Below the pieces are notes generated by a model. It had not been told where the DNA came from. It saw only the letters and a program-made list of their open reading frames with translations, and ran no database searches. Below, in pieces: positions 2,879 to 17,018 of a stretch of DNA of 17,018 nt. A program made the translations under genes and the position numbers. How positions within the stretch are numbered: position 1 is the first letter of the stretch; each line of letters opens with the position of its first letter. Origin of the DNA: a virus (taxonomy: Duplodnaviria > Heunggongvirae > Uroviricota > Caudoviricetes); the IMG/VR virus record IMGVR_UViG_2606217117_000010; one strand, written 5' to 3'.

Positions 2879-3961
2879 TTAGAACTGATAAACCAGACCT
2901 ACAGCGACGATGTCGTCGGTATCAATACCAGCTGTTTTGGTAAACTTACTATCGTCAATTAAGTTGATTTTGTAATCAACAAAAGTAGACATGTTTTTAT
3001 TAAAGTAGTAAGTAGCACCGACATCGACATACTTGACTAAGTCTCGGTCACCATGAACACCAAGGTCTTTACCTTTTGACTGAAGGTAAGCAACAGATGG
3101 GCGCAGACCGAAGTCAAACTGATATTGTGCTACTGCTTCAAAGTTTTGTGCTTTGTTTGCAATATGGTTATTACCAAAAACGGTCATATTCTGAGTTTCA
3201 GAATATGTGGTAGCCAGATAGATATTGTTCGCATCATATTTCAGGCCTGCAGCCCATACTTCCGCATTTTTGCCGGAGGCATTGAATTTGCTCTTACCAT
3301 AGGCGACCTGACCGTCAGTGCGATCTGATTTAGCATAGGTTGCACCCACGCCGAATCCTTCATACTCATAAGTAGTGGAGAAACCGAAACCATCACCATT
3401 GGCTTCAGTTACGTCAGTGCGGTCATTTTTACCCTGATACTGAGCAGCAAAGTTCAGGCCATCGACCAGACCAAAGAAGTCGTTGTTACGATAAGTTGCA
3501 ACACCAGTAGTGCGACCAGTCATGAACACATCTGTTTGGGTCCAGGTATCACCACCGAATTCTGGCAGAACGTCAGTCCACGCACCGATGTCGTATGCTA
3601 CACCGTAGTTACGGCCGTAATCGATGGAGCCGTAATCACCAAATTTCAGGCCTGCAAATGCAAGACGGGTTTTGTCTTTGGAAGAACCTTGAGATTCAGC
3701 ACGGTTGCCTTTGAATTCATATTCCCACTGACCGAAACCAGTCAGTTGATCGTTGATTTGGGTTTCACCTTTGAAGCCAAGACGGGCATAAGTAGTATCA
3801 CCATCATCTGCATCATTAGAGGAGAAGTAGTGCTTGGCATTAACTTTCCCGTATAGATCCAGCTTGTTACTGTCTTTATTATAAATTTCAGCTGCCTGAG
3901 CAGACATCGCCATCAGTACTGATGCAGCTACAGCAGAAATTGCCACTGTTAATTTTTTCAT
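2879..3961 (-). CDS. nmpC: outer membrane porin, OmpC/PhoE general bacterial porin family (prophage NmpC / Lc type)
   Basis: 360 aa from ATG at 3961-3959. Signal peptide [23 protein letters not shown] followed by [16 protein letters not shown], and C-terminal ...VAVGLVYQF ending in Phe: hallmark porin features. Located between Q and the holin as nmpC is in DLP12. The ORF-track start at 4021 is an upstream extension. Confidence 0.9.
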
Positions 3962-4159
3962 TGTACGCCCTTTTTTTGAACTATTATTAAAAAATGATGT
4001 CACTGCGCGATAAATATTCATCTAATCAATGTGATTATTTCAAGATGTAAGTTTTAGTTTCTCATTTAATTTGTGAAGTAGATCTCTATTTTTATCTGAA
4101 CCTTTTCTATCTAATCCTATTCATGGCTCTTGTCTGAACAAAAATAAATCTATTAGCTA

Positions 4160-4420: not shown

Positions 4421-4549
4421 GAGTCTCGATATTAGCTGATAACCCAATACCTGAGTTATTCACTGACTCCGAATCTGTTACGTTTCTGCCTTTATTGCGA
4501 TACGTAATATCCCCTTAATTTACACCCGCTTTGTCTGCGAGGTGGGGTT

Positions 4550-4765
4550 ATGAAATCCATGGATAAGTTAACAACGGGTGTCGCCTATGGCACCTCAGCA
4601 GGTAGTGCCGGTTACTGGTTTTTACCGCTGCTCGATAAAGTCACGCCCTCACAGTGGGCAGCAATAGGTGTGCTGGGTAGCCTGGTATTTGGCCTGCTGA
4701 CGTACCTGACAAACCTTTATTTCAAGATTAAAGAAGATAAGCGCAAGGCTGCGAGAGGTGAATAA
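4550..4765 (+). CDS. essD: class II holin / pinholin (phage 21 S21 type) with dual-start motif
   Basis: 71 aa [71 protein letters not shown] has two TMDs and a basic C-terminus. Met1-Lys-Ser-Met4 is the antiholin/holin dual start. Matches S21 as I recall it. Confidence 0.9.
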
Positions 4766-5262
4766 TGCCTCCATCATTACGAAAAGCCGTTGCTGCTGCT
4801 ATTGGTGGCGGAGCAATTGCTATAGCATCAGTGTTAATCACTGGCCCAAGTGGTAACGATGGTCTGGAAGGTGTCAGCTACATACCATACAAAGATATTG
4901 TTGGTGTATGGACTGTATGTCACGGGCATACAGGAAAAGACATCATGCTCGGTAAAACGTATACCAAAGCAGAATGCAAAGCCCTCCTGAATAAAGACCT
5001 TGCCACGGTCGCCAGACAAATTAACCCGTACATCAAAGTCGATATACCGGAAACAATGCGCGGCGCTCTTTACTCATTCGTTTACAACGTGGGTGCTGGC
5101 AATTTCAGAACATCGACGCTTCTTCGCAAAATAAACCAGGGCGATATCAAAGGCGCATGTGATCAGCTACGTCGCTGGACATATGCTGGCGGTAAGCAAT
5201 GGAAAGGTCTCATGACTCGTCGTGAGATTGAGCGTGAAATCTGTTTGTGGGGTCAGCAATGA
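4765..5262 (+). CDS. rrrD: SAR endolysin (T4-lysozyme-like, GH24; phage 21 R21 type)
   Basis: N-terminal signal-anchor-release domain [20 protein letters not shown], followed by a catalytic E...D...T triad region ([24 protein letters not shown]). GAGAGG RBS. Start overlaps the holin stop by 1 nt. Confidence 0.9.
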
Positions 5263-5723
5263 ACAGAGTAACCGCGATTATCTCCGCTCTGGTTATCTGC
5301 ATCATCGTCTGCCTGTCATGGGCTGTTAATCATTACCGTGATAACGCCATTACCTACAAAGCCCAGCGCGACAAAAATGCCAGAGAACTGAAGCTGGCGA
5401 ACGCGGCAATTACTGACATGCAGATGCGTCAGCGTGATGTTGCTGCGCTCGATGCAAAATACACGAAGGAGTTAGCTGATGCGAAAGCTGAAAATGATGC
5501 TCTGCGTGATGATGTTGCCGCTGGTCGTCGTCGGTTGCACATCAAAGCAGTCTGTCAGTCAGTGCGTGAAGCCACCACCGCCTCCGGCGTGGATAATGCA
5601 GCCTCCCCCCGACTGGCAGACACCGCTGAACGGGATTATTTCACCCTCCGGGAACGACTGGTAATGATGCAGGCCCAACTTGAAGGTGCTCAGCAATACA
5701 TAACCGAGCAGTGTTTAAAGTAA
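5259..5723 (+). CDS. rzpD: i-spanin Rz
   Basis: [61 protein letters not shown]... has an N-terminal TMD and coiled coil, and is near-identical to lambda Rz as I recall it. ATG 5259 overlaps the endolysin stop (ATGA). Confidence 0.85.
5479..5664 (+). CDS. rzoD: o-spanin Rz1 (outer-membrane lipoprotein), embedded in the +1 frame of Rz
   Basis: [24 protein letters not shown]... carries a lipobox (VVGC), followed by the proline-rich [15 protein letters not shown]. Entirely nested inside Rz. Confidence 0.85.
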
Positions 5724-5860
5724 AATCTTAACTACAATATGATTCATTTTGATGATTGTTTCATAAGGAACAGTGAAGTAAGATCTAAGAGGAGTTAAAT
5801 TTTATACAGTATAATCATAATATTGCAGCAAGGTGGTTATAATTGAAAGAATATTTAGAT

Positions 5861-7318
5861 ATGAATACATCTCATGTAAGAGTTGTTACTCATATGTGTG
5901 GGTTCCTGGTTTGGCTCTATAGTCTTTCAATGTTGCCACCAATGGTTGTAGCATTGTTTTATAAAGAAAAAAGCCTGTTCGTTTTCTTTATAACTTTCGT
6001 TATATTTTTTTGCATTGGTGGCGGAGCGTGGTATACAACTAAGAAATCTGGCATTCAATTACGTACCCGTGATGGGTTTATTATAATTGTAATGTTTTGG
6101 ATTTTGTTTTCTGTTATTAGTGCATTCCCTTTATGGATTGACTCAGAACTTAATTTAACGTTCATTGATGCTCTGTTTGAAGGGGTTTCTGGAATAACAA
6201 CAACAGGAGCAACTGTAATTGATGATGTTAGTTCATTACCTCGGGCATATTTGTACTATCGGTCACAGTTAAATTTTATAGGTGGTTTAGGAGTTATTGT
6301 TCTGGCGGTTGCTGTATTGCCATTATTGGGTATTGGTGGTGCAAAGCTTTATCAGTCAGAAATGCCGGGGCCATTTAAGGATGACAAACTCACTCCCCGC
6401 CTGGCCGATACGTCACGGACACTGTGGATAACTTATTCTTTATTAGGTATTGCTTGTATTGTCTGTTATAGACTTGCAGGAATGTCTTTGTTTGATGCTA
6501 TTTGTCACGGGATTTCCACAGTTTCGCTTGGTGGTTTCTCAACTCATAGCGAGAGTATCGGATATTTTAATAACTATTTGGTTGAGCTGGTGGCTGGTTC
6601 TTTTTCCCTGCTATCGGCTTTCAACTTCACTCTTTGGTATATTGTTATTAGCAGAAAAACGATAAAACCTTTAATCAGAGATATTGAACTTCGTTTCTTT
6701 CTGTTAATAGCCTTAGGGATGATCATTGTTACCTCTTTCCAGGTCTGGCATATAGGTATGTATGACTTGCATGGAAGTTTTATTCATTCGTTTTTTCTTG
6801 CCAGCTCCATGCTCACTGATAATGGTTTAGCTACGCAGGATTATGCAAACTGGCCCACGCACACGATAGTGTTTTTGCTGTTGTCAAGTTTCTTTGGGGG
6901 ATGTATCGGTTCAACCTGTGGTGGAATTAAGTCACTTCGATTTCTTATACTTTTCAAACAAAGCAAACACGAGATAAATCAACTTTCTCATCCCAGAGCG
7001 TTGTTAAGTGTAAATGTAGGAGGGAAGATAGTTACAGATCGTGTAATGAGGTCTGTATGGAGTTTCTTTTTTCTTTATACTCTCTTCACGGTGTTTTTTA
7101 TACTGGTGTTAAATGGTATGGGATATGATTTTCTTACATCATTTGCAACAGTGGCTGCATGTATTAATAATATGGGATTAGGTTTTGGGGCTACTGCATC
7201 GTCATTCGGAGTGCTTAATGACATTGCAAAATATTTAATGTGCATAGCTATGATTCTTGGTCGCCTTGAAATTTATCCTGTTATTATATTGTTTTCAGGT
7301 TTTTTTTGGCGCTCCTAA
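5861..7318 (+). CDS. trkG: Trk-system potassium uptake protein TrkG (TrkH/KtrB superfamily)
   Basis: 485 aa polytopic membrane protein with repeated selectivity-filter-like glycine motifs (GITTTGATV, GIGGAK, SLGGFS, GSTCGGIK). Matches the Rac-prophage TrkG of E. coli as I recall it. AT-rich gene downstream of Rz/Rz1, as in Rac. The ORF-track TTG at 5843 is an upstream extension. Confidence 0.9.
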   Translation: MNTSHVRVVTHMCGFLVWLYSLSMLPPMVVALFYKEKSLFVFFITFVIFFCIGGGAWYTTKKSGIQLRTRDGFIIIVMFWILFSVISAFPLWIDSELNLTFIDALFEGVSGITTTGATVIDDVSSLPRAYLYYRSQLNFIGGLGVIVLAVAVLPLLGIGGAKLYQSEMPGPFKDDKLTPRLADTSRTLWITYSLLGIACIVCYRLAGMSLFDAICHGISTVSLGGFSTHSESIGYFNNYLVELVAGSFSLLSAFNFTLWYIVISRKTIKPLIRDIELRFFLLIALGMIIVTSFQVWHIGMYDLHGSFIHSFFLASSMLTDNGLATQDYANWPTHTIVFLLLSSFFGGCIGSTCGGIKSLRFLILFKQSKHEINQLSHPRALLSVNVGGKIVTDRVMRSVWSFFFLYTLFTVFFILVLNGMGYDFLTSFATVAACINNMGLGFGATASSFGVLNDIAKYLMCIAMILGRLEIYPVIILFSGFFWRS

Positions 7319-7404
7319 TATATGGCTGATTTATAATTGTGAGTTTAATATTATGTTGACTCACTCATTGATCCAATACCTAACTTTACCAGCAACACCT
7401 CCGC

Positions 7405-7439
7405 CCCCAGTAGCACTGGCTGCTGGGGTGCGTTTTATT
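7405..7439 (+). terminator. rho-independent terminator downstream of trkG
   Basis: Stem CCCCAGTAGC (7405-7414), loop ACTG, stem GCTGCTGGGG (7419-7428, one G-U pair), followed by TGCGTTTTATT. Confidence 0.55.
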
Positions 7440-7455
7440 CATAAAGCAAGGCTGT

Positions 7456-8250
7456 ATGAGCGAGAAATTAAAGATAGTCTATCGCCCATTACAAGAATTG
7501 TCACCGTATGCGCACAATGCCAGGACGCACAGTACTGAGCAGGTGGCACAACTGGTAGAAAGTATTAAGCAATTCGGCTGGACTAATCCGGTGCTGATTG
7601 ACGAAAAGGGCAAAATTATTGCGGGTCACGGTCGTGTTATGGCGGCTGAAATGCTCAAAATGGATTCTGTTCCGGTCATTGTTCTGTCTGGCCTGACGGA
7701 TGAGCAGAAAAAGGCGTACCGCCTGGCAGATAATCGCCTGCCGATGAATGCTGGCTGGGATGAAGATCTGTTGCGGATGGAGCTGTCGGACCTAATCAAT
7801 GCTGATTTTGATGTCTCCCTGACAGGCTTCATCCCGACAGAAATTGATGAACTGTTGACGGATGTTTTGCCCGGTACAGGAAATGAGGAGGAGCCGTATA
7901 CGACGAAAATTGATACGCCTGTTTATGAGCCGTCGGGCGGTAAACCGGATATCAGTGAACTGTACGACGATACGAAAACTCAGGAGCTGATCAGCCGGAT
8001 ACGTTCGGCGTCCCTTGATCCTGATATTGAGAAATTCCTCCTGTGTGCGGCAGAACGTCACACAGTGTTTAATTTCAGCAGAATTGCGGACTATTACGCT
8101 CATGCCCCCGCTGAAATTCAGTGCCTTTTCGAGGAGTCGGCGCTGGTGATCATTGATTATCAGCAGGCTATTGAAAATGGATTTGTCCGAATGACGCAGC
8201 GCATGGTGGAGATCATGCATGGCGGGGAGGAGGAGGAGGAATATGCGTGA
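7456..8250 (+). CDS. ParB/sulfiredoxin-like nuclease-domain protein (ParB N-terminal domain plus uncharacterised C-terminal domain with poly-Glu tail)
   Basis: N-terminal IVYRPLQELSPYAHNARTH...NPVLIDEKGKIIAGHGRVMAAEM resembles the ParB/Srx fold, with a G-x-G-R box in place of the ParB GERRxRA patch. The C-terminus GGEEEEEYA is encoded by GGAGGAGGAGGAGGAA, which doubles as the RBS of the next gene. A Rac-prophage ynaK-like position is possible but unverified. Confidence 0.75.
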   Translation: MSEKLKIVYRPLQELSPYAHNARTHSTEQVAQLVESIKQFGWTNPVLIDEKGKIIAGHGRVMAAEMLKMDSVPVIVLSGLTDEQKKAYRLADNRLPMNAGWDEDLLRMELSDLINADFDVSLTGFIPTEIDELLTDVLPGTGNEEEPYTTKIDTPVYEPSGGKPDISELYDDTKTQELISRIRSASLDPDIEKFLLCAAERHTVFNFSRIADYYAHAPAEIQCLFEESALVIIDYQQAIENGFVRMTQRMVEIMHGGEEEEEYA

Positions 8251-9175
8251 TGATTTTTGCGCCTTTATTCTGACTCACGGGCGACCGGACAAAGTTCTGA
8301 CTTACCGGACGTTGCGTCGTGCTGGCTATACCGGGAAAATTTTTATCGTTGTTGATGATGAAGATAAGACACGGCATCAGTACATGGCTGAATTTGGTGA
8401 ACAGGTGCTGGTATTTTCCAAAGCCGATATTGCCAGTCGTTTTGACGAAGCCGATAATTTTGGTGATCGCCGCTCAATTTTTTACGCCCGTAATGCCTGT
8501 TTCGACCTGGCAAAACTGGTCGGGTGTAAATACTTCATTCAGCTCGATGATGATTATCACGAGTTCCAGTTTCGGGTGGATCGCAACTATGACCAGGCCT
8601 ATTTCCCGATAAGGAAACTGGATGCGATCCTTTCTGAAATGCTGGCGTATTACGAATCAATACCCGCGCTTTCCATCGCTATGTCGCAGGGCGGGGATTT
8701 TCTTGGTGACAATGGCGGCCATGCTTCGTGGGTGAAACGCAAGGCAATGAACAGCTTTATCTGTTCGGTTGATCGACCGTTCTCATTCATGGGGCGCATT
8801 AACGAGGATGTGAATACGTACACGAATCTCGGTCGCTGTGGTGAATTGTTTATGACGATCGGTGCTGTCCAGTTAGGGCAGAAACAGACTCAGAAAAACA
8901 GCGGCGGAATGACCGAGCTGTATCTGGATTCCGGAACCTACGTTAAAAGTTTTTACTCCGTCATGTATTCGCCGTCGTGCGTAAAAATCTCACTGATGGG
9001 TGCCAGCCATAAACGCATTCACCATCAGGTCACCTGGAACAACGCTGCAGTAAAAATCCTTCACGAAAAATACAGGAAGAAGACACCCTGCATATCAATG
9101 GGGGTGACAAATGATTCCGTATTCGAAAGTCGAGTCTCTGGCAGCGTGCCGGATGACTGCACAACAAATCGCTGA
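8243..9175 (+). CDS. uncharacterised protein with N-terminal GT-A (family-2-like) glycosyltransferase fold signature
   Basis: The coding region is well supported: long ORF, strong AGGAGG RBS, 8-nt overlap with the upstream stop. Alternative ATG at 8219 gives MAGRRRRN-. The function is a motif-level guess: AFILTHGRPD...IFIVVDDEDK...ARNACFDLAKLVGCKYFIQLDDDYHEF resembles the GT2 pattern (beta-strand with DD, then ARN...G.Y...LDxDD/DxD). Confidence 0.6.
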   Translation: MRDDFCAFILTHGRPDKVLTYRTLRRAGYTGKIFIVVDDEDKTRHQYMAEFGEQVLVFSKADIASRFDEADNFGDRRSIFYARNACFDLAKLVGCKYFIQLDDDYHEFQFRVDRNYDQAYFPIRKLDAILSEMLAYYESIPALSIAMSQGGDFLGDNGGHASWVKRKAMNSFICSVDRPFSFMGRINEDVNTYTNLGRCGELFMTIGAVQLGQKQTQKNSGGMTELYLDSGTYVKSFYSVMYSPSCVKISLMGASHKRIHHQVTWNNAAVKILHEKYRKKTPCISMGVTNDSVFESRVSGSVPDDCTTNR

Positions 9176-9362
9176 CGTTCTGGATGTTGATCTGAACCGA
9201 CTGAAAGAAAATCGGGAAGCAATGACAGATTTTTATGCGGCCATCCGTAAGGGCAGAGCGAAAGGTGAAGCCGAGTTACGAGCGGCATTGTTTAAGCTTG
9301 CCAGAAAAGGGGATGCCTTTGCTCTGCGCGAACTACTCAGGGTGGATAAAAATCAGGACTAA
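9111..9362 (+). CDS. small hypothetical protein, possibly DNA-binding (packaging-associated?)
   Basis: 83 aa ORF with GGGGTG RBS, ending 3 nt before the terminase small subunit start. Contains the HTH-like segment MTAQQIADVLDVDLNRL. It overlaps the 3' end of the upstream gene by 65 nt, and the alternative start at 9153 still overlaps by 23 nt. Confidence 0.45.
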   Translation: MIPYSKVESLAACRMTAQQIADVLDVDLNRLKENREAMTDFYAAIRKGRAKGEAELRAALFKLARKGDAFALRELLRVDKNQD

Positions 9363-9365
9363 CTG

Positions 9366-10460
9366 ATGAGCAGACCGGACTGGGGGGCGTTGCAGCAGGA
9401 GTATATTGCTGAATACACCCGCTCCGGTATATCTCCGGTGGCATGGTGTGAAGCAAGGGGACTGAACTACGCAACAGCCCGTCGTTACATCAAAAAAACT
9501 CCGAAAAATGCGCAGAAAGAAATGCGCAAAACTGCGCAAAAAAGTGCGCGAAAAAAAACTGCGCAGACTGCGCAAAGGCAGAACGGAAAATCTCAGAAAA
9601 AAAAGGCTGTATCCGATGCACTCCTGATTGAGGGGGACACGGAAGAAATTTCGTTCTGCCCCGATGAATTCGGTATTTCTGACCAGCAGGCAAAATTCGC
9701 CATGTTGGTTGCTCAGGGGAAAAAGCCGACAGAGGCATACCGACTGGCTGGTTATGAGGGGCAAGGTGCGACAGCTAACAGCAACGCCAGCCGTATGCTT
9801 AGAAATGCCAGGGTTTATCGTGCTATCAGCTACTTCCGCAATCAGTACCAGAAACGCTATACCGCAGACCTGGATTTACTGGTGAGCCAGTTGATGGCCA
9901 TTGTCCAGGCCGACCCCAATCAGTTGGCACAATTTCGCCGTGTTAACTGCCGTTATTGCTGGGGCGAGAATCATCTCTACCAGTGGCGTGATATTGCAGA
10001 ATTCGATAAGGCTGCGGCACAGGCCTCCAGAGATGGTAAACCCGAGCCGGAATATGGAGGCCTCGGCTTTGTTGATAACGCCATACCCAATCCTGATTGC
10101 CCGAAGTGCTGCGGTGAGGGAACAGGACAGCTTTATATGGCTGATACCACACTGCTTGATGGGGATGCGCGGCAATTATATGCAGGGTCAAAGCTCGGAA
10201 AATACGGTGTTGAGATCCTGCTGGAGGATAAGGCTGCCGCCCGGCGTGAATTGTTGCGTTTGCTTTCTGCTGGCGGGGCATTATGTGCAGATAAGCGGCT
10301 ACAGGAACTGGAAATTGAACGGCGCAGAATAGAGAACCAGAAGCTGCGCAAAGAGATCGAAACGGTGGAGGATAATGAACATCCCCAGCCTGTGGCGATC
10401 AATATTAATGTGGTTGATGCCAGATTAAGGAGTGATGAAGATGATCTCTCCGACGCTTAA
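9366..10460 (+). CDS. terminase small subunit (Terminase_2-like) with N-terminal HTH, lysine-rich linker and a CxxC...CxxC zinc-ribbon insertion
   Basis: Segment FGISDQQAKFAMLVAQGKKPTEAYRLAGYEGQGATANSNASRMLRNARV matches the terminase small-subunit pattern (LT.KQ..F...Y...NAT.A...AGYS...A...ASRLL.N). Lies immediately upstream of the large subunit. Cysteine pairs NCRYCWGE and DCPKCCGE. Confidence 0.7.
   Translation: MSRPDWGALQQEYIAEYTRSGISPVAWCEARGLNYATARRYIKKTPKNAQKEMRKTAQKSARKKTAQTAQRQNGKSQKKKAVSDALLIEGDTEEISFCPDEFGISDQQAKFAMLVAQGKKPTEAYRLAGYEGQGATANSNASRMLRNARVYRAISYFRNQYQKRYTADLDLLVSQLMAIVQADPNQLAQFRRVNCRYCWGENHLYQWRDIAEFDKAAAQASRDGKPEPEYGGLGFVDNAIPNPDCPKCCGEGTGQLYMADTTLLDGDARQLYAGSKLGKYGVEILLEDKAAARRELLRLLSAGGALCADKRLQELEIERRRIENQKLRKEIETVEDNEHPQPVAININVVDARLRSDEDDLSDA
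9490..9620 (+). repeat. degenerate tandem repeats (about 12 nt, TGCGCA-A-rich) with A7-A8 homopolymer runs, inside the terminase small subunit gene
   Basis: AATGCGCAGAAAG / AAATGCGCAAAA / CTGCGCAAAAAA / GTGCGCGAAAAAAAA / CTGCGCAGACTGCGCAAAGG, encoding KNAQKEMRKTAQKSARKKTAQTAQRQ. Confidence 0.5.
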
Positions 10461-11742
10461 TGTGCCTCAGGCGCGATTTCTTTCAATGCCCCATAAATTT
10501 AAAGCCTATATTGCTGGTTTTGGCTCGGGCAAAACATGGGTTGGGTGTGGCGGCATATGCAAGGGGATTTGGGAGCATCCAGGTATAAATCAGGGATATT
10601 TTGCGCCAACGTATCCCCAAATTCGCGATATTTTTTACCCTACAGTGGAAGAAGTTGCTGCTGACTGGGGATTGAACGTAAAAATTAATGAGGGAAATAA
10701 AGAGGTTCACTTTTATTACGGACGCCAGTATCGGGGAACCACTATCTGCAGATCGATGGAGAAGCCACAAACGATCGTCGGTTTCAAAATTGGTAATGCG
10801 CTGGTGGATGAACTGGACATTTTGCCGAAGGAAAAAGCCAGAACGGCGTGGCGCAAGATAATTGCGCGTATGCGTTATAAGATTGATGGACTTCGCAACG
10901 GTATTGACGTTACAACCACGCCGGAAGGATTCAAATTTGTCTACGAGCAGTTTGTTAAAGCCGTGCGTGAAAAAACAGAGCTGGCCTCACTGTATGGTCT
11001 GGTGCAGGCATCTACTTTCGATAATGAAAAGAACCTGCCAGCAGATTACATTCCTTCACTTCTTGAATCATACCCTCCAGAGCTGATTAAAGCCTATCTT
11101 CTAGGACGGTTTACTAACCTGACAAGTGGTACTGTTTACCATCAGTTTGACCGGAAACTGAATAATTGCGAAGAAGTGGAGCAGCCAGGGGAGCCGATTT
11201 ATATTGGGATGGATTTTAACGTTGGAAAGATGGCGGGAATCGTCCATGTGCTGCGTTTGGGGCTTCCATGTGCGGTAACTGAAATCATCAATGCCTACGA
11301 TACGCCGGATATGATCCGCCTCATTAAAGAACGCTTCTGGCTGTATGACGGGCATGATTACCGGAAAGTGAGGGAGATTTATATTTATCCAGATGCTTCC
11401 GGAGATTCCAGAAAATCAAGTAACGCAAGTACGACGGATATAGCCCAGCTTAAGCAGGCAGGTTTTAACGTTGTGGTGAACAGCTCGACCCCGCCAGTAA
11501 AAGATCGCGTTAACTCAATGAATGCAATGTTCTGCAATGCCAATGGTGAGCGTCGCTATAAAGTTAATGTGAAGCGTTGTCCGGTATATGCCGAATCTCT
11601 GGAGCAACAGGTCTGGGATGATAAGGGGGAGCCTGATAAAAAATCTGGCAATGATCACCCGAATGATGCCGGAGGTTATTTCATCGTTAAGCAATTCCCT
11701 ATTGTCAAACCGACCGGAAGAGTCACATCACTTCGGATTTAA
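10441..11742 (+). CDS. terminase large subunit (ATPase plus nuclease)
   Basis: Walker A AGFGSGKT near the N-terminus, and C-terminal nuclease acidic motifs (YPDASGDS, GNDHPNDAGG). AAGGAG RBS at 10426-10431 favours ATG 10441; the ORF-track start at 10432 (GTG) is also possible. Overlaps the end of the small-subunit gene. Confidence 0.9.
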   Translation: MISPTLNVPQARFLSMPHKFKAYIAGFGSGKTWVGCGGICKGIWEHPGINQGYFAPTYPQIRDIFYPTVEEVAADWGLNVKINEGNKEVHFYYGRQYRGTTICRSMEKPQTIVGFKIGNALVDELDILPKEKARTAWRKIIARMRYKIDGLRNGIDVTTTPEGFKFVYEQFVKAVREKTELASLYGLVQASTFDNEKNLPADYIPSLLESYPPELIKAYLLGRFTNLTSGTVYHQFDRKLNNCEEVEQPGEPIYIGMDFNVGKMAGIVHVLRLGLPCAVTEIINAYDTPDMIRLIKERFWLYDGHDYRKVREIYIYPDASGDSRKSSNASTTDIAQLKQAGFNVVVNSSTPPVKDRVNSMNAMFCNANGERRYKVNVKRCPVYAESLEQQVWDDKGEPDKKSGNDHPNDAGGYFIVKQFPIVKPTGRVTSLRI

Positions 11743-11744
11743 TT

Positions 11745-13151
11745 ATGGCTGATATATCAACACCCAACCTCGACTATAACGATATGCTGGAGGCGTGGGA
11801 TATTAACGACGCATTGATGGGCGGTACGCTTGAAATGCGCAGGCAGGGGGAAAATTATCTCCCCAAATGGCCTAATGAAGATGAAGACGCTTATAAAAAA
11901 CGCCTGTCTGTGGCTACGTTACTTCCTGTGTATGAAGAAAGCATCAAACAAAATATTGGGCGCATATTTGCAGAGCCGACAGTATTGAGTGAGGAAACGC
12001 CGGAAAAAATCAGGGAATATGCAGAAAATATCGACATGGAGGGGAGCCGACTGGATGTGTGGGCGCAGCAATTTTTCAGTCTCGCATTTCAGTATGGTGT
12101 GGCACATGCGCTGGTGGACTATCCACGAACGGATATGAACGAGATTCGGACAAAAGCCGATGAAAACGCGGCCGGTGGTCGCCCGTACGTTACGATGCTG
12201 AATCCACGCCAGGTTATTGGATGGAAATCGAAAGTTGAAAAAGGGAAAGTTGTTCTCACTGATTTGCGTATAAAAGAGGTCATCATTATTGATGGTGATG
12301 ATTTCGGGCAGAAGAAGGTGGAGCAGATCCGCCATATTATGCCCCGTCGAGTTGAAATTTATCGACGTAGCGAAGGCACTAATGGCGAATCTGTCTGGAC
12401 GCTTCATGAGTCATGGAATACCAGCCGTGATGATATTCCTCTGGTAACACTGTACACGAAGAAAACAGGATTTATGCGTGGTACACCGCCATTGCTTAAT
12501 CTTGGCTTGCTGAATATCAAGCACTGGCAAAGCCAGAGCGAGCAGGACAATATTCTTCATGTTGCCCGCGTTCCATTGCTGGTGGCCTACGGGCTGGACA
12601 GGAATGAAGAACTGACGGTTGGTGCATCCACCGCTACGATTTTTGAGGACAGAACAAAAAATGGCCTCGAATATGTTGAACATAGTGGCGCAGCGATAGA
12701 ATCTGGCGAAACATCACTTGAGAAGCTGGAAAATCAGATGCGTCATGCCGGCGCTAAACTTCTGCGTGCTGAAAATACATCCACCAAATCTGTTGATCAG
12801 ACTAATGAAGAGCGAATGCAGGAAAACTCGCCGCTTTATACAATGGCGAACTCCCTCGAAGATGCCCTCGATAATATTCTCCAGATAATGGCGGAATGGA
12901 TCGGAGAGAGTTGCGGTGGCAATGTGGATGTGCGCACTGAACTGGATGTATCTGCCCAGGTGTTTGACTCATCCTCCGCGCTGGCTGTTCAGTCATTGCG
13001 TCAGGGCGGTGATATACGTCAGATTGATGCGGTTCGGGTGTTGCAGGCGTTGAAATTTATCGATCAGGATTCCCGTCCAGAGGAAGTGATCGATGAATTA
13101 AAAAATCAGAGTGTAATGCTGATGGAAATCAATGATGCAAACCGTGAATGA
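11745..13151 (+). CDS. portal protein (putative)
   Basis: 468 aa ORF starting 3 nt after the large-terminase stop and followed by a Mu-F-like head morphogenesis gene: the canonical portal position and size. No motif confirmation. Confidence 0.7.
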   Translation: MADISTPNLDYNDMLEAWDINDALMGGTLEMRRQGENYLPKWPNEDEDAYKKRLSVATLLPVYEESIKQNIGRIFAEPTVLSEETPEKIREYAENIDMEGSRLDVWAQQFFSLAFQYGVAHALVDYPRTDMNEIRTKADENAAGGRPYVTMLNPRQVIGWKSKVEKGKVVLTDLRIKEVIIIDGDDFGQKKVEQIRHIMPRRVEIYRRSEGTNGESVWTLHESWNTSRDDIPLVTLYTKKTGFMRGTPPLLNLGLLNIKHWQSQSEQDNILHVARVPLLVAYGLDRNEELTVGASTATIFEDRTKNGLEYVEHSGAAIESGETSLEKLENQMRHAGAKLLRAENTSTKSVDQTNEERMQENSPLYTMANSLEDALDNILQIMAEWIGESCGGNVDVRTELDVSAQVFDSSSALAVQSLRQGGDIRQIDAVRVLQALKFIDQDSRPEEVIDELKNQSVMLMEINDANRE

Positions 13152-14247
13152 ACGGCTGCGTGATGAATCAATTGCTCATGCAGTCTGGATATCCCGCTAT
13201 AGCACTGGCGTGGCTGCCAGAATGGTGAAAATACTGAATGACAGCGATGCGGAACTTACTGCTCGCCTGCTGATAGCACTGGACAGCCTCGATCCAGGTA
13301 GTTTTACCGTTAAGCGCCTGGAGTCACTTCTGGCGAGCGTCAGAGAGGTTAACCGCACTGCTATTAACAGCATGTTTACCAGTCTCTCCGGAGAGCTGAA
13401 CGAGCTGGCAATTTATGAGGCTGGTTATCAGTTAAGTCTGTTTGATTCTATGCTACCTGATTTTGTTGCTGATGTTCACCCTCTGGTTGGTATCTCTCCT
13501 GATGCACTTTATGCCGCTGCAATGGCGCGACCATTCCAGGGACGACTGCTCAGTGAGTGGGCCTCAGATCTTGAGGCGGATCGGCTCAGACGCATAACAA
13601 ATACAGTGCGTCAGGGTTTTTTGCTGGGGGATACCAATGAGCAGATCGCAAGAAAAATTCGGGGACATGTCAGTAAGGGATTTCAGGATGGTGCATTGCA
13701 GATGAGCCGGGCTAATGCGGCCAGCATTGCAAAAACAGCGGTTGGACATCTTGCTGCTACTGCCCGTGAGAGTTTTGCCAGCGCGAATAATGATTTGATT
13801 AAGGGTAAGCAATGGTTATCAACGCTTGATAATCGTACTACGCCACAATGTCGAATCAGGGATCGCCTCAAATATACGCTGAATAATAAACCTGTAGGTC
13901 ACAGCGTGCCTTATTTGCAGGGGCCGGGAAAAATTCATTTCTGCTGCCGCTCAACGGAAACGTTCATTCTGAAATCAGCGAAGGAACTGGGTATTGATGT
14001 TCGCGATATTTCCCCGGCTGAGCGGGCCAGCATGGATGGCGTGATGGCCGGAGATACAACCTACAGGGAATGGTTTTTGCGTCAGCCTTACACCAGACAA
14101 AAACAGATTGTGGGGGAAAGCCGAGCAAAGCTGATTCGGGATGGTGGTATGTCGCCAGATGAATTTTACACCGATAAAGGCGAATGGCTGACGCTGAAGC
14201 AGCTCCGTGAGCGTGATGCACAGGTATTCAGAAAAGCAGGGATTTAA
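13132..14247 (+). CDS. phage head morphogenesis protein, SPP1 gp7 / Mu F family (minor head protein)
   Basis: Contains the family-typical segment GKQWLSTLDNRTTPQCRIRDRLKY (D-x-R-T-x-x-C). Overlaps the portal gene end by 20 nt. Confidence 0.8.
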   Translation: MMQTVNERLRDESIAHAVWISRYSTGVAARMVKILNDSDAELTARLLIALDSLDPGSFTVKRLESLLASVREVNRTAINSMFTSLSGELNELAIYEAGYQLSLFDSMLPDFVADVHPLVGISPDALYAAAMARPFQGRLLSEWASDLEADRLRRITNTVRQGFLLGDTNEQIARKIRGHVSKGFQDGALQMSRANAASIAKTAVGHLAATARESFASANNDLIKGKQWLSTLDNRTTPQCRIRDRLKYTLNNKPVGHSVPYLQGPGKIHFCCRSTETFILKSAKELGIDVRDISPAERASMDGVMAGDTTYREWFLRQPYTRQKQIVGESRAKLIRDGGMSPDEFYTDKGEWLTLKQLRERDAQVFRKAGI

Positions 14248-14266
14248 ATAAATCATTTATTACAAC

Positions 14267-14294
14267 AGGCTACCTTCGGGTGGCCTTTTTTATT
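14267..14294 (+). terminator. rho-independent terminator with UUCG tetraloop between the head morphogenesis and scaffold genes
   Basis: AGGCTACC-TTCG-GGTGGCCT (8-bp stem including one G-U pair) followed by TTTTTATT, beginning 20 nt after the stop at 14247. Confidence 0.6.
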
Positions 14295-14351
14295 GCTGCG
14301 ATCCGGATGGTGAGCAGCGTAACTGTCGGAAGACTTAAACCAGGTACTAAT

Positions 14352-15116
14352 ATGAAACTGAAAACGGTCGAGATTAACGGAAAACAATACGCAGAAATTG
14401 ATACTGCTGGCCTGCCAGTTTATGTGCACGACGATGGTAAAGAAATTGGCTTCGATGCACCGCTGGCGACAAAAAAAATTACAGAGCTTAATGGCGAGGC
14501 AAAAAATCATCGCCTGGCTAAAGAAGCTGCAGAGGAAAAACTGGCTAAGTTTGCCGCTATCGAAGACCCGAAGAAGGCGATCGAGGCACTGGAAATGCTG
14601 TCAAAAATCGACCAGAAAAAGCTGCTCGATGCGGGACAGGTTGACCAGGTTAAGGCAGAAATTACGAAAAATTTTCAGCAGCAATTAGATGAAGAAAAGC
14701 AACGCTCTCAGATGCTGGAGAAGCAGCTTTACGATTCTATGATTGGCGGTAGTTTTGCGGGTTCAAAATATATTGCCGATAAAATTGCGATCCCGGCAGA
14801 TTTATTACAAGCCCGCTTCGGGCAGGCATTCAAAGTGGAAGAAGGGAGGATCGTTGCTTATGACGCTTCCGGCAACAAAATTTATTCCCGCGCGAAGCCT
14901 GGCGAACTGGCGCAGTTTGATGAGGCGCTGGAGTTCCTTGTCGAAAATTACCCTCAGAAAGACTACATCCTGAAAGCCAGTGGCAACAATGGCGGCGGCT
15001 CCCGTCCGACACAGCATGATATTGGTCAGAAAACGATGAAACGCTCTGCTTTTGATGCACTGGATGTTGCAGGTAAGCAAAACGCATTGAAAGACGGTAT
15101 CACAATCGTTGATTAA
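14352..15116 (+). CDS. putative scaffolding protein
   Basis: 254 aa, highly charged and alanine/lysine/glutamate-rich with predicted coiled-coil character. Positioned between the head morphogenesis and capsid genes. The ORF-track start at 14280 lies inside the terminator hairpin, so ATG 14352 is preferred. Confidence 0.55.
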   Translation: MKLKTVEINGKQYAEIDTAGLPVYVHDDGKEIGFDAPLATKKITELNGEAKNHRLAKEAAEEKLAKFAAIEDPKKAIEALEMLSKIDQKKLLDAGQVDQVKAEITKNFQQQLDEEKQRSQMLEKQLYDSMIGGSFAGSKYIADKIAIPADLLQARFGQAFKVEEGRIVAYDASGNKIYSRAKPGELAQFDEALEFLVENYPQKDYILKASGNNGGGSRPTQHDIGQKTMKRSAFDALDVAGKQNALKDGITIVD

Positions 15117-15214
15117 CACATTTGTCAGCTTCCGGATGGGAGCTGGTGTCAGGGCTGGATAGCTCATTACTCCATCTATTCACAATTACGCAAATTTTTA
15201 AGGAATATTTAATT

Positions 15215-16149
15215 ATGGCTGGAAATACCCTGACCGGGTTGATCCCGACTATTTATACCGCCCTGGATGTTGTATCCCGTGAGCAGGTAGGTTTTATCCC
15301 TGCGGTAGCAAAAAACGCAAAAGCTGACGCCGCAGCAAAAGATCAGACGGTAACCGCGCCAGTTGCGCCTGAGGCGAAAACCGAAGATATCGTACCGGGG
15401 CCGTCAGCTCCGAATACCGGTGATCAAAATATTGGCACTGTTGATGTAAAAATTACTAAATCCAAAATGGCACCGGTTAAATGGAATGGTGAAGAACAAC
15501 TGGCTCTTGGCCCTTCAGGGACTTACAACACCATTCTGGCTGATCAGTTCAAGCAGGCTTTTCGCGCCCTTGCAAACGAGGTTGAGGCTGATCTTGGTGC
15601 GTTGTATTTCGGTGCTTCCCGCGCCGTGGGAACCGCAGGGACAACGCCGTTTGGTGTTAAAGATGATCTTTCTGATGCTGCTCTGGCTCGTCAGGTTCTG
15701 GAGGATAACGGCGCACCGACAACCGATCTGCAGATGGTGCTTGGCTCCACTGCCATTGCTAATTTGCGCGGAAAACAGTCTGTATTGTTTAAAGTGAATG
15801 AATCCGGCACTGAACAGCTACTGCGTGAGGGCGTGTTGGGGCGTCTGGAGGGATTCAATATTCACAGTTCGGCAGGTGTGAAACGAGCGCCAAAGGTTGC
15901 TGCAACTGGTTATCTCGTGAATGGAGAGAAAAAAGAAGGCGATGTTCTTATTTCCATTGATACTGGTTCGGGGAGTATTTCTGCAGGTCAGATTGTTACG
16001 TTCGCTGGTGATCCGAATCAGTATGTTGTGGCAGCAGCGACCAGCAATCTGATTACTCTTGCAGCGCCCGGACTGCGTCAGGATCTGGCCGATGATACTG
16101 CCATCACAGTTGTTGGGGCCTTTACTGCAAATATGGCGTTTGATCGCAA
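15215..16149 (+). pseudogene. major capsid (coat) protein gene, 3' end interrupted by IS insertion
   Basis: ORF with AAGGA RBS and ATG 15215, directly after the scaffold gene. The reading frame runs into the IS terminus at 16150 and ends 13 codons later inside IS sequence (...MAFDRN|EPPRVSWRVFYL*). Capsid identity is by position and size only. Confidence 0.6.
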
Positions 16150-17018
16150 TGAACCGCCCCGGGTTTCCTGGAGAGTATTTTATCTGTGAACTCAGGCTGC
16201 CAGATCATCGTTTCCGATGGAAGCATAATAAGCTTTTTCTGCTTCTGCCGGAGGAGTATGGCCCAGCCTTTCCAGCAATCGTCGATTGTTATACCAGTCC
16301 ACCCACGTGAGTGTGGCCAGTTCCACTTCTGCACGGTTTTTCCAGCTCTTACGGTGTATTACCTCCGCTTTGTAAAGACCATTGATGCTCTCCGCCATCG
16401 CGTTGTCATACGAGTCGCCTGTACTTCCTGTTGATGCCAGTAATCCGGCTTCCTTAAGCCGCTGTGTGTAGGCCAGCGATACATACTGAGAACCTTTATC
16501 ACTGTGATGGACCGTGCCGGACGGTCGACGGGCCCATAACGCCTGCTCCAGTGCATCCAGCACGAATGTCGTCTCCATGGACGATGAGACCCGCCACCCC
16601 ACAATGTATCCGGCAAACACATCAATGATGAACGCCACATAGACGAAGCCCTGCCATGTGCTGACGTAAGTAAAATCAGCCACCCACAGCTGGTCAGGTC
16701 GTTCTGCCACGAACTGACGGTTTACGCGGTCGCCTGCGGCAACGGCTTTCCGGCTGATGGTCGTACGGACCTTTTTACCCCGGAGAACACCGGCAAGTCC
16801 CATAACCGCCATGAGACGTGCCACAGTGCATCTGGCCACTCTGATACCTTCCCGTAACAACTGACGCCAGACTTTACGCACACCGTATACCTTGTGATTT
16901 TCATCGTATACGCGCTGTATCTCTTTCTTCAGCCAGTCATCGCGCTGCGCACGGGCACTGCGTTTATCCGGATGATGTCGCTGTTGCTGACAGTGGTAAT
17001 ACGTTGACGGGGCAATAT
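16150..17018 (-). mobile_element. IS3-family insertion sequence (IS629/IS1203-like), partial: inverted repeat at the orfB end plus most of orfB; element continues past the window end
   Basis: Terminus TGAACCGCCCCGGGTTTCCTGGAGAG at 16150 is an inverted-repeat partner of the terminus at 281-311. A DDE transposase gene follows on the minus strand. Confidence 0.85.
16192..17018 (-). CDS. IS3-family transposase OrfB (DDE integrase-like catalytic domain), 5'-partial in window
   Basis: Translation ...RKVWRQLLREGIRVARCTVARLMAVMGLAGVLRGKK...WVADFTYVSTWQGFVYVAFIIDVFAGYIVGW...HHSDKGSQYVS...DSYDNAMAESINGLYKAEV... contains a DDE motif (D...D...E). The frame stays open to the window edge, consistent with an OrfAB frameshift fusion. 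Confidence 0.85.
   Translation of the reverse strand, partial: IAPSTYYHCQQQRHHPDKRSARAQRDDWLKKEIQRVYDENHKVYGVRKVWRQLLREGIRVARCTVARLMAVMGLAGVLRGKKVRTTISRKAVAAGDRVNRQFVAERPDQLWVADFTYVSTWQGFVYVAFIIDVFAGYIVGWRVSSSMETTFVLDALEQALWARRPSGTVHHSDKGSQYVSLAYTQRLKEAGLLASTGSTGDSYDNAMAESINGLYKAEVIHRKSWKNRAEVELATLTWVDWYNNRRLLERLGHTPPAEAEKAYYASIGNDDLAA

Follow-up and report, generated by a model that had tools for sequence, protein, structure and literature searches.

Here, we present a computational analysis of a pair of overlapping genes in a stretch of 17,018 nucleotides from a tailed-phage record (IMGVR_UViG_2606217117_000010), hereafter the window, which derives from a Rac-type lambdoid prophage of Escherichia coli and comprises its late region. 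The first gene, ynaK (7456..8250, + strand), encodes an acidic, two-domain protein of 264 amino acids (aa; isoelectric point [pI], 4.5), while the second (8243..9175, + strand; stop codon at 9173-9175) encodes a protein of 310 aa, of which the core (aa 1-282) has a pI of ~8.6. A first-pass annotation made from the sequence alone had described these two open reading frames (ORFs), whose existence we confirm, as a translationally coupled ParB/sulfiredoxin (Srx)-like and glycosyltransferase-like pair, and had offered three hypotheses for their function: a DNA-modification or DNA-targeting accessory module, an anti-defence or defence cassette, or a packaging-associated nuclease with a sugar-transferase partner. 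We found that the second protein is, by profile, fold and motifs, a GT-A enzyme of the TET-associated glycosyltransferase (TAGT) family; that this TAGT subfamily is invariably accompanied by the C-terminal domain (CTD) of YnaK, either fused to a ParB/Srx module or as a stand-alone protein; and that, among the three hypotheses, the evidence most favors a DNA-modification accessory module.

The product of the second gene, hereafter TAGT, matches Pfam family PF20691 over aa 8-222 (E value, 5.5e-35; 121.6 bits against a cut-off of 27.5) and phrog_842 over aa 1-298 (E value, 1.4e-103). The TAGT family covers the base-J glucosyltransferase, GREB1 and the phage 5-hydroxymethylcytosine (5hmC) glycosyltransferases, and characterized TAGTs transfer a sugar onto 5-hydroxymethyl-uracil or -cytosine. 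The AlphaFold2 model (predicted local distance difference test [pLDDT], 79.7; predicted template modeling score, 0.78) has a GT-A Rossmann-like fold. Using this model in a Foldseek search of the PDB, we obtained 28 matches at an E value of ≤1e-3, all distant (TM score, 0.28-0.46); nearly all are nucleotide-sugar GT-A transferases, among them SunS/ThuS, GalNAc-T2, ColGalT1, glycogenin and the nucleoside glycosyltransferase AvpGT with Ara-A, and two ADP-glucose pyrophosphorylase chains complete the list. A PDB sequence search detected no relative and no family member with a solved structure. Thus, structure and profile searches place the protein among the glycosyltransferases and not in a different family, in agreement with the GT-A fold and DxD motif proposed for it, and the motifs quoted in support (FILTHGRPD, FIVVDDEDK and YFIQLDDDY) are all present. 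By contrast, the statement that its C-terminal 180 aa match nothing does not hold, because this part belongs to the conserved core that the two profiles cover. In alignments of 24-46 homologues, the entire 280-aa core is conserved, with R14, D38, D41, R83, D102-D103-D104-Y105, Q149, D152, R166-K167, N187-E188-D189, T216-Q217, K235, R258 and H260-H261 invariant. The R...DDD...EDY/F active-site signature common to phage DNA GT-A enzymes and the base-J glucosyltransferase (bioRxiv 10.1101/2023.12.21.572611) is satisfied by R83 (in YARN), D102-D103-D104-Y105 and E188-D189-V190, which are invariant or nearly so; however, the final position is V rather than Y/F. Judged from the alignments, the predicted nucleotide-sugar and metal motifs (R83, D102-D104, E188-D189 and H260-H261) are intact. 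Specificity to the E. coli lineage is confined to the last ~25 aa, a disordered tail that runs into the next ORF. RefSeq phage annotations have taken over the phrog_842 label, beta-glucosyl-HMC-alpha-glucosyltransferase, for NC_019449 (phage c5), NC_021340 (HHTV-2), NC_024206 (phi jlb1), PP754928 and other records; this name is over-specific because these phage genomes show no hydroxymethylcytosine (hmC) pathway. At times, RefSeq names the protein GREB1-related protein.

The two genes are tightly coupled. At the junction (8224..8250, + strand), which reads ATGCGTGA, the start codon of the TAGT gene (ATG, 8243-8245) lies ahead of the stop codon of ynaK (TGA, 8248-8250), giving an overlap of 8 nt. 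The purine-rich sequence GGGGAGGAGGAGGAGGAA (8224-8241) precedes this start and codes for the GGEEEEE tail of YnaK, and the GGAGG-rich Shine-Dalgarno sequence of the TAGT gene sits within the Glu codons. The in-frame ATG at 8219 is unsupported as an alternative start because all homologues begin with MR(D/E)DF. The translational coupling that had been read from this junction is also a property of the family: the two genes share 1-20 nt in 36 of 38 non-redundant loci, the remaining two having a gap of ≤13 nt.

What is conserved next to the TAGT is, above all, the CTD of YnaK (aa ~147-264; 7894..8250, + strand). It begins with an extended YTxKIxTPVYEP motif, in which Y148, Y157 and E158 are invariant and which has low pLDDT in isolation, continues as a helical bundle and ends in the poly-Glu tail; no Pfam family covers this part of the protein. 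The earlier description of YnaK as a ParB/Srx domain with a poly-Glu tail was therefore correct in both elements but overlooked this second conserved domain. The gene just upstream of the TAGT gene carries the CTD in all of the loci examined (93/93 loci first collected and 38/38 non-redundant loci), and, conversely, 28 of 28 phage-collection records with the CTD also carry an adjacent TAGT. A CTD profile search of 1.84 billion representative proteins returned 1,390 clusters at 50% identity, always with the domain in C-terminal position; among the best 150 of these clusters, approximately three quarters are 230-320 aa long. In most loci, the CTD is fused to a ParB/Srx module, and the cases missed by Pfam are still ParB-like by PHROG profiles, while in a minority, including 195-kb Vibrio phages and metagenomic contigs of lytic type, it is a stand-alone protein of 112-157 aa. 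Pairing of the two genes is far beyond chance. Moreover, pairwise distances in the CTD correlate with those in the TAGT (Pearson r = 0.78), compared with 0.45 for the N-terminal module, and the partner protein is acidic (median pI, 5.3) while the TAGT is basic (median pI, 8.4). Based on the co-occurrence, the gene overlap, the correlated divergence and the opposite pI values, we argue that the CTD and the TAGT form a complex, in which the ParB module would be an optional third element.

Over its N-terminal part (aa 1-141; 7456..7878, + strand), YnaK is a predicted nucleoside triphosphate (NTP)-binding module of the ParB/Srx type. This assignment, already made in the first-pass annotation on the strength of the box IIAGHGRVMAAEM, which is present, is supported by a match to PF02195 just above the cut-off (aa 23-90; 28.0 bits versus 26.3) and by matches to PDB ParB/Spo0J chains with E values of 6e-5 to 4e-4. 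Full-length YnaK corresponds to phrog_620 (aa 1-250; E value, 4.8e-90). The closest profile relatives of the module alone are the N-termini of phage ParB-DNA methyltransferase fusions: phrog_498, labeled DNA methyltransferase, covers aa 3-141 (E value, 1.9e-50), as does the PADLOC model MTase_II (1e-38), and 431 phage records match the module, many of them annotated as DNA methylases. YnaK itself has no methyltransferase domain by Pfam, PHROG and PADLOC profiles, the matches to phrog_498 and MTase_II being confined to aa 3-141. Box II reads GHGR in place of GERR, and R60 is invariant. Compared with the residue list for CTP-binding ParB proteins (PMC13229309), R23, S35, G40, R60 and N94 align with CTP-contact residues, while the hydrolysis positions are changed, the catalytic Gln to Asn21 and the catalytic Glu to His58. 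Because the contacts are kept and both hydrolysis residues are altered, YnaK likely binds an NTP, and the substitutions suggest altered hydrolysis, which makes turnover of the nucleotide uncertain. ParB/Srx folds bind a range of NTPs (PMC12704722). We also considered YnaK as a partition ParB and rejected this candidate: a Pfam scan found no helix-turn-helix (HTH) or dimerization domain, TIGR00180 scores 37 bits, below its cut-off of 58, the annotation of Rac-type prophages contains no parA in the neighborhood, and repeat and palindrome searches around the gene pair gave no convincing parS-like site.

The E. coli K-12 version of YnaK is an 87-aa stump consisting of a ParB/Srx fragment only (locus L111, 3878-4141), because a deletion removed everything from codon ~82 of ynaK through the tail genes; accordingly, the K-12 Rac prophage lacks the CTD, the TAGT, and the terminase and head genes. 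In a strain with 100% identity to the window (locus L001, 20001-20258), RefSeq/PGAP calls the intact 264-aa ynaK a pseudogene with a missing C-terminus, likely because the K-12 reference is itself the deletion stump. Over-expression of this truncated 87-aa protein reportedly raised the minimum inhibitory concentration of six unrelated antibiotics (PMC12924614). Phage vB_EcoM-613R2 (locus L109, 3935-6938) carries a 196-aa ParB protein with 60% identity to the N-terminal module of YnaK directly ahead of a terS-like gene and terL; here, neither CTD nor TAGT is present, and the ParB module thus also occupies the pre-terminase slot alone.

Both genes are maintained by selection. Most of the distant pairs were saturated at synonymous sites, and four pairwise values of the ratio of nonsynonymous to synonymous substitution rates (dN/dS) were usable; dN/dS is 0.12-0.16 for ynaK and ~0.07 for the TAGT gene, arguing that these genes are kept and are not drifting relics. 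At 95-100% nucleotide identity, the pair is present in 1580 of 5426 complete E. coli genomes, is full-length in 889 of these and truncated in many others; it also occurs in ten phage records. Copies of ynaK with 98-100% identity are counted in 889-1580 of the 5426 genomes. The ParB-fused form spans Proteobacteria, Firmicutes, Actinobacteria, Bacteroidota and a halovirus. It lies directly upstream of the terminase genes in prophages of E. coli, Salmonella, Pantoea and other enterobacteria, in soil and gut metagenomic phages, in the Lactobacillus phages phi jlb1 and c5 (in c5 as ORF1-ORF2, right after cos), in Nocardia phage NTR1 and in a Porphyromonas phage; in the archaeal halovirus HHTV-2, the distance from the pair to the downstream terL is ~3 kb. 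Nearly all loci with a detected terminase large subunit (TerL) have its gene on the same strand, 0.2-1.6 kb downstream. The adjacent TerL proteins belong to at least five unrelated families (Terminase_6, Terminase_3, TerL_ATPase, GpA and the T4-like type), arguing that the pair is tied to a place, the start of the packaging operon, rather than to one particular machine. In NTR1 (locus L013, 3-3408), terL starts 3 nt after the TAGT stop codon with no gene for the terminase small subunit (terS) between them, and in locus L090 the gap between the TAGT gene and terL is 178 nt; in these cases, terS is either located elsewhere or replaced in part of its role by the ParB-like protein.

Nature has also deleted the module. 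Three sister phages of c5, Ld25A (deletion of c5 nt 362-1560), LL-Ku (194-1038) and Ld17 (up to ~nt 1114), have deletions through it, retain the same terminase as c5 and are all viable isolates. These natural deletions indicate that the module is accessory and not part of the packaging core. Consistently, the pair is syntenic with terminases, yet it does not behave as a core component of a terminase system, and a packaging-associated nuclease is not supported, since we found no nuclease motif and the module is dispensable for packaging in the Lactobacillus phages. The idea of a defence cassette fares no better: in PADLOC-DB 2.0, no defence model matches the TAGT, and YnaK matches MTase_II alone, through its ParB module.

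Pairs with a stand-alone CTD sit in different surroundings, among replication and nucleotide-metabolism genes and not beside terminases. Their neighbors include extra glycosyltransferases, a sugar epimerase, PIG-L, S-adenosylmethionine (SAM)-dependent methyltransferases, C5 or N6/N4 DNA methylases, ThyX and dCMP deaminase, surroundings that are typical of DNA-hypermodification clusters; near some of these pairs, there is also a Tad2-like gene together with nucleotide-metabolism genes. SAM-dependent methyltransferases of several kinds (C5 DNA methylase, N6/N4 methylase and Methyltransf_23-like) often adjoin CTD and TAGT pairs (L094, 8868-9614; L096, 10914-11636; L099, 8561-9370; L100, 9161-9979; L008, 358-975), which hints at a combined pathway of methylation and glycosylation.

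Within the window, the genes on the + strand are ordered holin, lysozyme, spanins, trkG, ynaK, the TAGT gene, a small ORF, terS, terL, portal and head genes, and the segment from the holin gene to the coat gene (4534-16149) shares 98.6% identity with Escherichia phage vB_EcoS-683R6. The trkG insert (5843-7437), flanked by the spanin genes and ynaK, is AT-rich (GC content, 0.33-0.41) and has its own intrinsic terminator (7405..7437, + strand), with a 10-bp stem (CCCCAGTAGC/GCTGCTGGGG) followed by a T-run. This terminator marks the upstream edge of the module: here, the GC content rises from 0.35 to 0.50, and the ynaK and TAGT genes (0.48-0.50) resemble the flanking lysis and terminase genes, with no terminator in the window between the pair and the terminase operon. 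Because of this composition and the placement of the terminator, we reject the suggestion that the pair occupies a moron slot; the moron of this region is trkG. Downstream, the small ORF (9111..9362, + strand; likely start, 9153) overlaps the tail of the TAGT gene and belongs to a terS-associated family (phrog_309, labeled terminase small subunit; E value, 8e-23); its counterpart in ON470595 is annotated as a coding sequence of 70 aa. It is followed on the + strand by terS (9366-10460) and terL (10432-11742), identified by Terminase_2 and phrog_51 matches for the terminase genes (9366..11742). Within terS (9504-9567), four direct copies of the 13-nt unit AAAAMTGCGCARA, spaced by 10-27 nt, coincide with a Lys/Ala/Gln-rich peptide repeat of TerS; this array could be a pac-type recognition array or a mere reflection of the peptide repeat. 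The P22-type coat gene (15122-16881 region) is broken at ~16149 by an IS3-family element with a transposase ORF (16192-16881, - strand), and this copy of the prophage is therefore defective and cannot make capsids. Upstream of the lysis genes, the window contains an ORF for a Dam-type N6-adenine methyltransferase-like protein with an NPPY motif (411-998) and an OmpC/NmpC-like porin gene (2879-4021, - strand), and this early-right region is unlike that of vB_EcoS-683R6.

Altogether, we propose that YnaK and the TAGT are the two subunits of a late-expressed glycosyltransferase that most likely acts on phage DNA, to which the ParB module would tether the enzyme after replication; we give this proposal an even chance of being right. 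In this model, the acidic CTD of YnaK would bind the basic TAGT, probably via the extended YTxKIxTPVYEP motif, and the ParB/Srx module with bound NTP would hold or activate the TAGT on double-stranded DNA (dsDNA). A precedent is ParB176, which activates its dioxygenase and is needed only on dsDNA, and KorB does likewise for KorA (PMC13229309). Replicated phage DNA would then receive a sugar from a UDP-sugar donor, either shortly ahead of packaging or in its course, while the repressed prophage and the host chromosome would stay unmodified. The phage would likely benefit by evading restriction, or other defences that target DNA, once in its next host. The proposal draws on the fact that the characterized relatives of the TAGT act on DNA and that YnaK shares its N-terminal module with DNA methyltransferase fusions. 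It is further supported by the activation of a phage dioxygenase by a ParB-like protein, by the strict co-occurrence, correlated distances, gene overlap and opposite charge of CTD and TAGT, by purifying selection on both genes, by the DNA-metabolism surroundings of the stand-alone pairs and by the composition that the pair has in common with the terminase operon.

Several observations weigh against this proposal. YnaK is very acidic and has no HTH or other DNA-binding domain, and one TAGT, GREB1, glycosylates a protein (PMC7968844). Its weakest link is the acceptor. We found no TET/JBP dioxygenase or thymidylate synthase-like hydroxymethylase in the PGAP/GenBank annotation of two Rac-type prophages or in the complete 31.8-kb, 50-ORF genome of phage c5. 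Similarly, Pfam scans of ten unannotated neighbor proteins revealed no dioxygenase or hydroxymethylase, and 20 Pfam-annotated neighborhoods contained no TET/JBP protein or ThyS-type hydroxymethylase and a single ThyX (Thy1) gene (in L100). Among 137 neighbor proteins from 22 diverse loci, no such enzyme is recurrent in the 25 commonest of 74 families, a scope within which a rare singleton is possible. With no source of hydroxymethyl-pyrimidines found, the canonical TAGT acceptor is missing, and the protein fails the contextual feature behind its family name, the association with TET. It is not alone in this respect, as ~65% of phage glycosyltransferase contigs had no hydroxymethyl-base pathway neighbor and were set aside as unexplained in published surveys (bioRxiv 10.1101/2023.12.21.572611). 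One version of the proposal does without such a precursor: YnaK-TAGT would glycosylate canonical DNA directly, with candidate acceptors being an exocyclic amine, some other site on a base, whether ordinary or methylated, and ends of DNA made during packaging. We regard direct glycosylation as unlikely, though deserving of attention.

The same missing hydroxymethyl-pyrimidine source in the annotated genomes favors the idea that the pair is a protein glycosyltransferase, as is GREB1, a TAGT that transfers O-linked N-acetylglucosamine to estrogen receptor alpha (PMC7968844). According to this idea, YnaK would bring the TAGT to a DNA-bound or phage-assembly protein, such as terminase, portal or a host nucleoid protein, or would itself be the acceptor, for example at the invariant Tyr or Thr of its YTxKIxTPVYEP motif in a glycogenin-like manner, and the added sugar would serve to regulate packaging or to block a host factor. 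The peptide and protein glycosyltransferases among the Foldseek matches (SunS/ThuS, GalNAc-T2, ColGalT1 and glycogenin) are in line with this idea, and the conserved extended motif, with its invariant Y148, Y157 and E158 and its low pLDDT when modeled alone, would fit an acceptor peptide as well as a docking peptide. However, the N-terminal module of YnaK is of the type used by DNA methyltransferases, and the stand-alone forms belong to clusters of nucleotide and DNA-modification genes that contain additional sugar-tailoring enzymes. Moreover, the types of the adjacent terminase, portal and capsid proteins vary freely, arguing that no conserved structural protein is an obvious acceptor. We therefore consider protein glycosylation rather unlikely.

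A third possibility is that the acceptor is a nucleotide, a nucleoside, another small molecule or RNA, for instance an immune-signaling or chain-terminating nucleotide, with the ParB/Srx domain supplying or sensing the nucleotide. The range of NTPs bound by ParB/Srx folds (PMC12704722), the Foldseek match to AvpGT with Ara-A, and the Tad2-like and nucleotide-metabolism genes near some stand-alone pairs all fit such a role. Nevertheless, many pairs have no ParB module, no PADLOC model matches the TAGT, and its closest characterized relatives act on polymeric DNA, and we consider this explanation improbable. We are slightly more skeptical still of the suggestion that the pair is a decayed remnant of a pathway of ParB, a dioxygenase (or hydroxymethylase) and a TAGT, with neither substrate nor function once the step that supplies hydroxymethyl-pyrimidine is gone. 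ParB proteins, glycosyltransferases and terminases are the commonest domains found with phage 5mYOX dioxygenases (PMC13229309), no acceptor-generating enzyme was found here, and many E. coli copies are truncated, with K-12 retaining 87 aa of YnaK. On the other hand, purifying selection on both genes is strong (dN/dS, 0.07-0.16, with saturated dS), the catalytic motifs are all invariant, the dioxygenase-free two-gene unit recurs over five phyla, including in annotated genomes of viable phages, and the partner domain forms 1,390 clusters at 50% identity. Finally, that the pair is part of the packaging machinery, with the ParB-like protein marking or organizing the pac/cos region for terminase and the glycosyltransferase as an auxiliary, is highly improbable: terS/terL directly follow the pair in most temperate-phage loci, and the pair comes first after cos in c5, adjoins terL at a distance of 3 nt with no intervening terS in NTR1 and gives way to a short ParB alone in the same slot of vB_EcoM-613R2, but both genes are destroyed in the viable phages Ld25A, LL-Ku and Ld17 with the same terminase, at least five unrelated TerL families occur with the pair, and stand-alone CTD and TAGT pairs are not beside terminases.

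Returning to the proposed two-subunit glycosyltransferase, the pair is a tractable E. coli representative of the DNA glycosyltransferase-like genes that lack a recognizable hydroxymethyl-base pathway: a two-gene unit under strong selection, with a partner domain that is unnamed in databases and a ParB module that ties it to the principle that ParB-like proteins switch on DNA-modifying enzymes. If the acceptor is DNA, the product could be a new modification with bearing on restriction evasion, sequencing artefacts and enzyme tools; if it is protein, a family of DNA glycosyltransferases would have been turned to protein glycosylation in phages. Should canonical DNA be glycosylated directly, this would be an undescribed DNA modification chemistry, with a ParB-type nucleotide switch acting on concatemeric DNA just ahead of packaging. 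Its distribution would be wide, taking in temperate phages of bacteria and archaea and approximately one sixth to one third of complete E. coli genomes. Independently of the acceptor, the analysis corrects two widespread annotations, namely, that of intact ynaK as a pseudogene and that of the TAGT as a beta-glucosyl-HMC-alpha-glucosyltransferase in genomes without hmC.

The combination of ParB and a glycosyltransferase, which at first could not be placed in any described system, has a setting: TAGT is a named Pfam family, and ParB genes are on record beside phage TET/glycosyltransferase clusters (PMC8256090; bioRxiv 10.1101/2023.12.21.572611). Papers that cite Aravind and co-workers credit them with proposing that, during packaging, ParB guides modification machinery, and activation of a phage DNA dioxygenase on dsDNA by a ParB-like protein was shown in 2026 (PMC13229309). 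The co-occurrence of ParB, glycosyltransferase and terminase genes is therefore already known. As far as we found, what appears to be undescribed is the dedicated CTD adaptor domain, the strictly coupled, dioxygenase-free class of ParB-CTD and TAGT across bacteria and archaea, and its acceptor.

Compared with known TAGTs, i.e., the base-J glucosyltransferase and the phage 5hmC GT-A enzymes, the E. coli protein is alike in sequence, in its GT-A fold and in its R...DDD...ED motifs, and it shares with the phage enzymes a phage origin and the proximity of ParB and terminase genes. It differs in that no TET/JBP protein, C5-methyltransferase partner or ThyS-type hydroxymethylase was found with it, in its third motif (EDV versus EDY/F) and in its obligate, translationally coupled CTD partner, which is undescribed for the known enzymes. 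GREB1, the human O-GlcNAc transferase of estrogen receptor alpha, belongs to the same Pfam family; however, it is a large eukaryotic multidomain protein with a protein substrate and no ParB partner. With Spo0J, KorB and Noc, YnaK has in common the ParB N-terminal fold, recognizable boxes I-III and several conserved CTP-contact residues, while it is without an HTH or parS-binding domain, ParA or a ParA-binding motif, and a canonical dimerization domain, and the catalytic Glu is lost. The 5mYOX176/ParB176 system (O'Toole et al. 2026, PMC13229309) is similar in architecture and context: there, too, the gene next to that of a post-replicative DNA-modifying enzyme, often near terminase genes, codes for a ParB-like protein with a nucleotide-binding N-terminal domain and a C-terminal domain but no obvious DNA-binding domain. 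The partner is a dioxygenase in that system and a glycosyltransferase here; a putative dependence of the TAGT on YnaK would fit their strict co-occurrence, coupling and correlated divergence. Lastly, the ParB-N6/N4 DNA methyltransferase fusions (phrog_498; PADLOC MTase_II) are homologous to YnaK over its first ~140 aa, a stretch that takes in the GHxR box and linker (E value, 1.9e-50), and often occupy the same slot upstream of terminase; in these proteins, the catalytic domain is fused to the ParB module, whereas in the ynaK-TAGT pair an adaptor domain takes this place and the glycosyltransferase is a separate protein.

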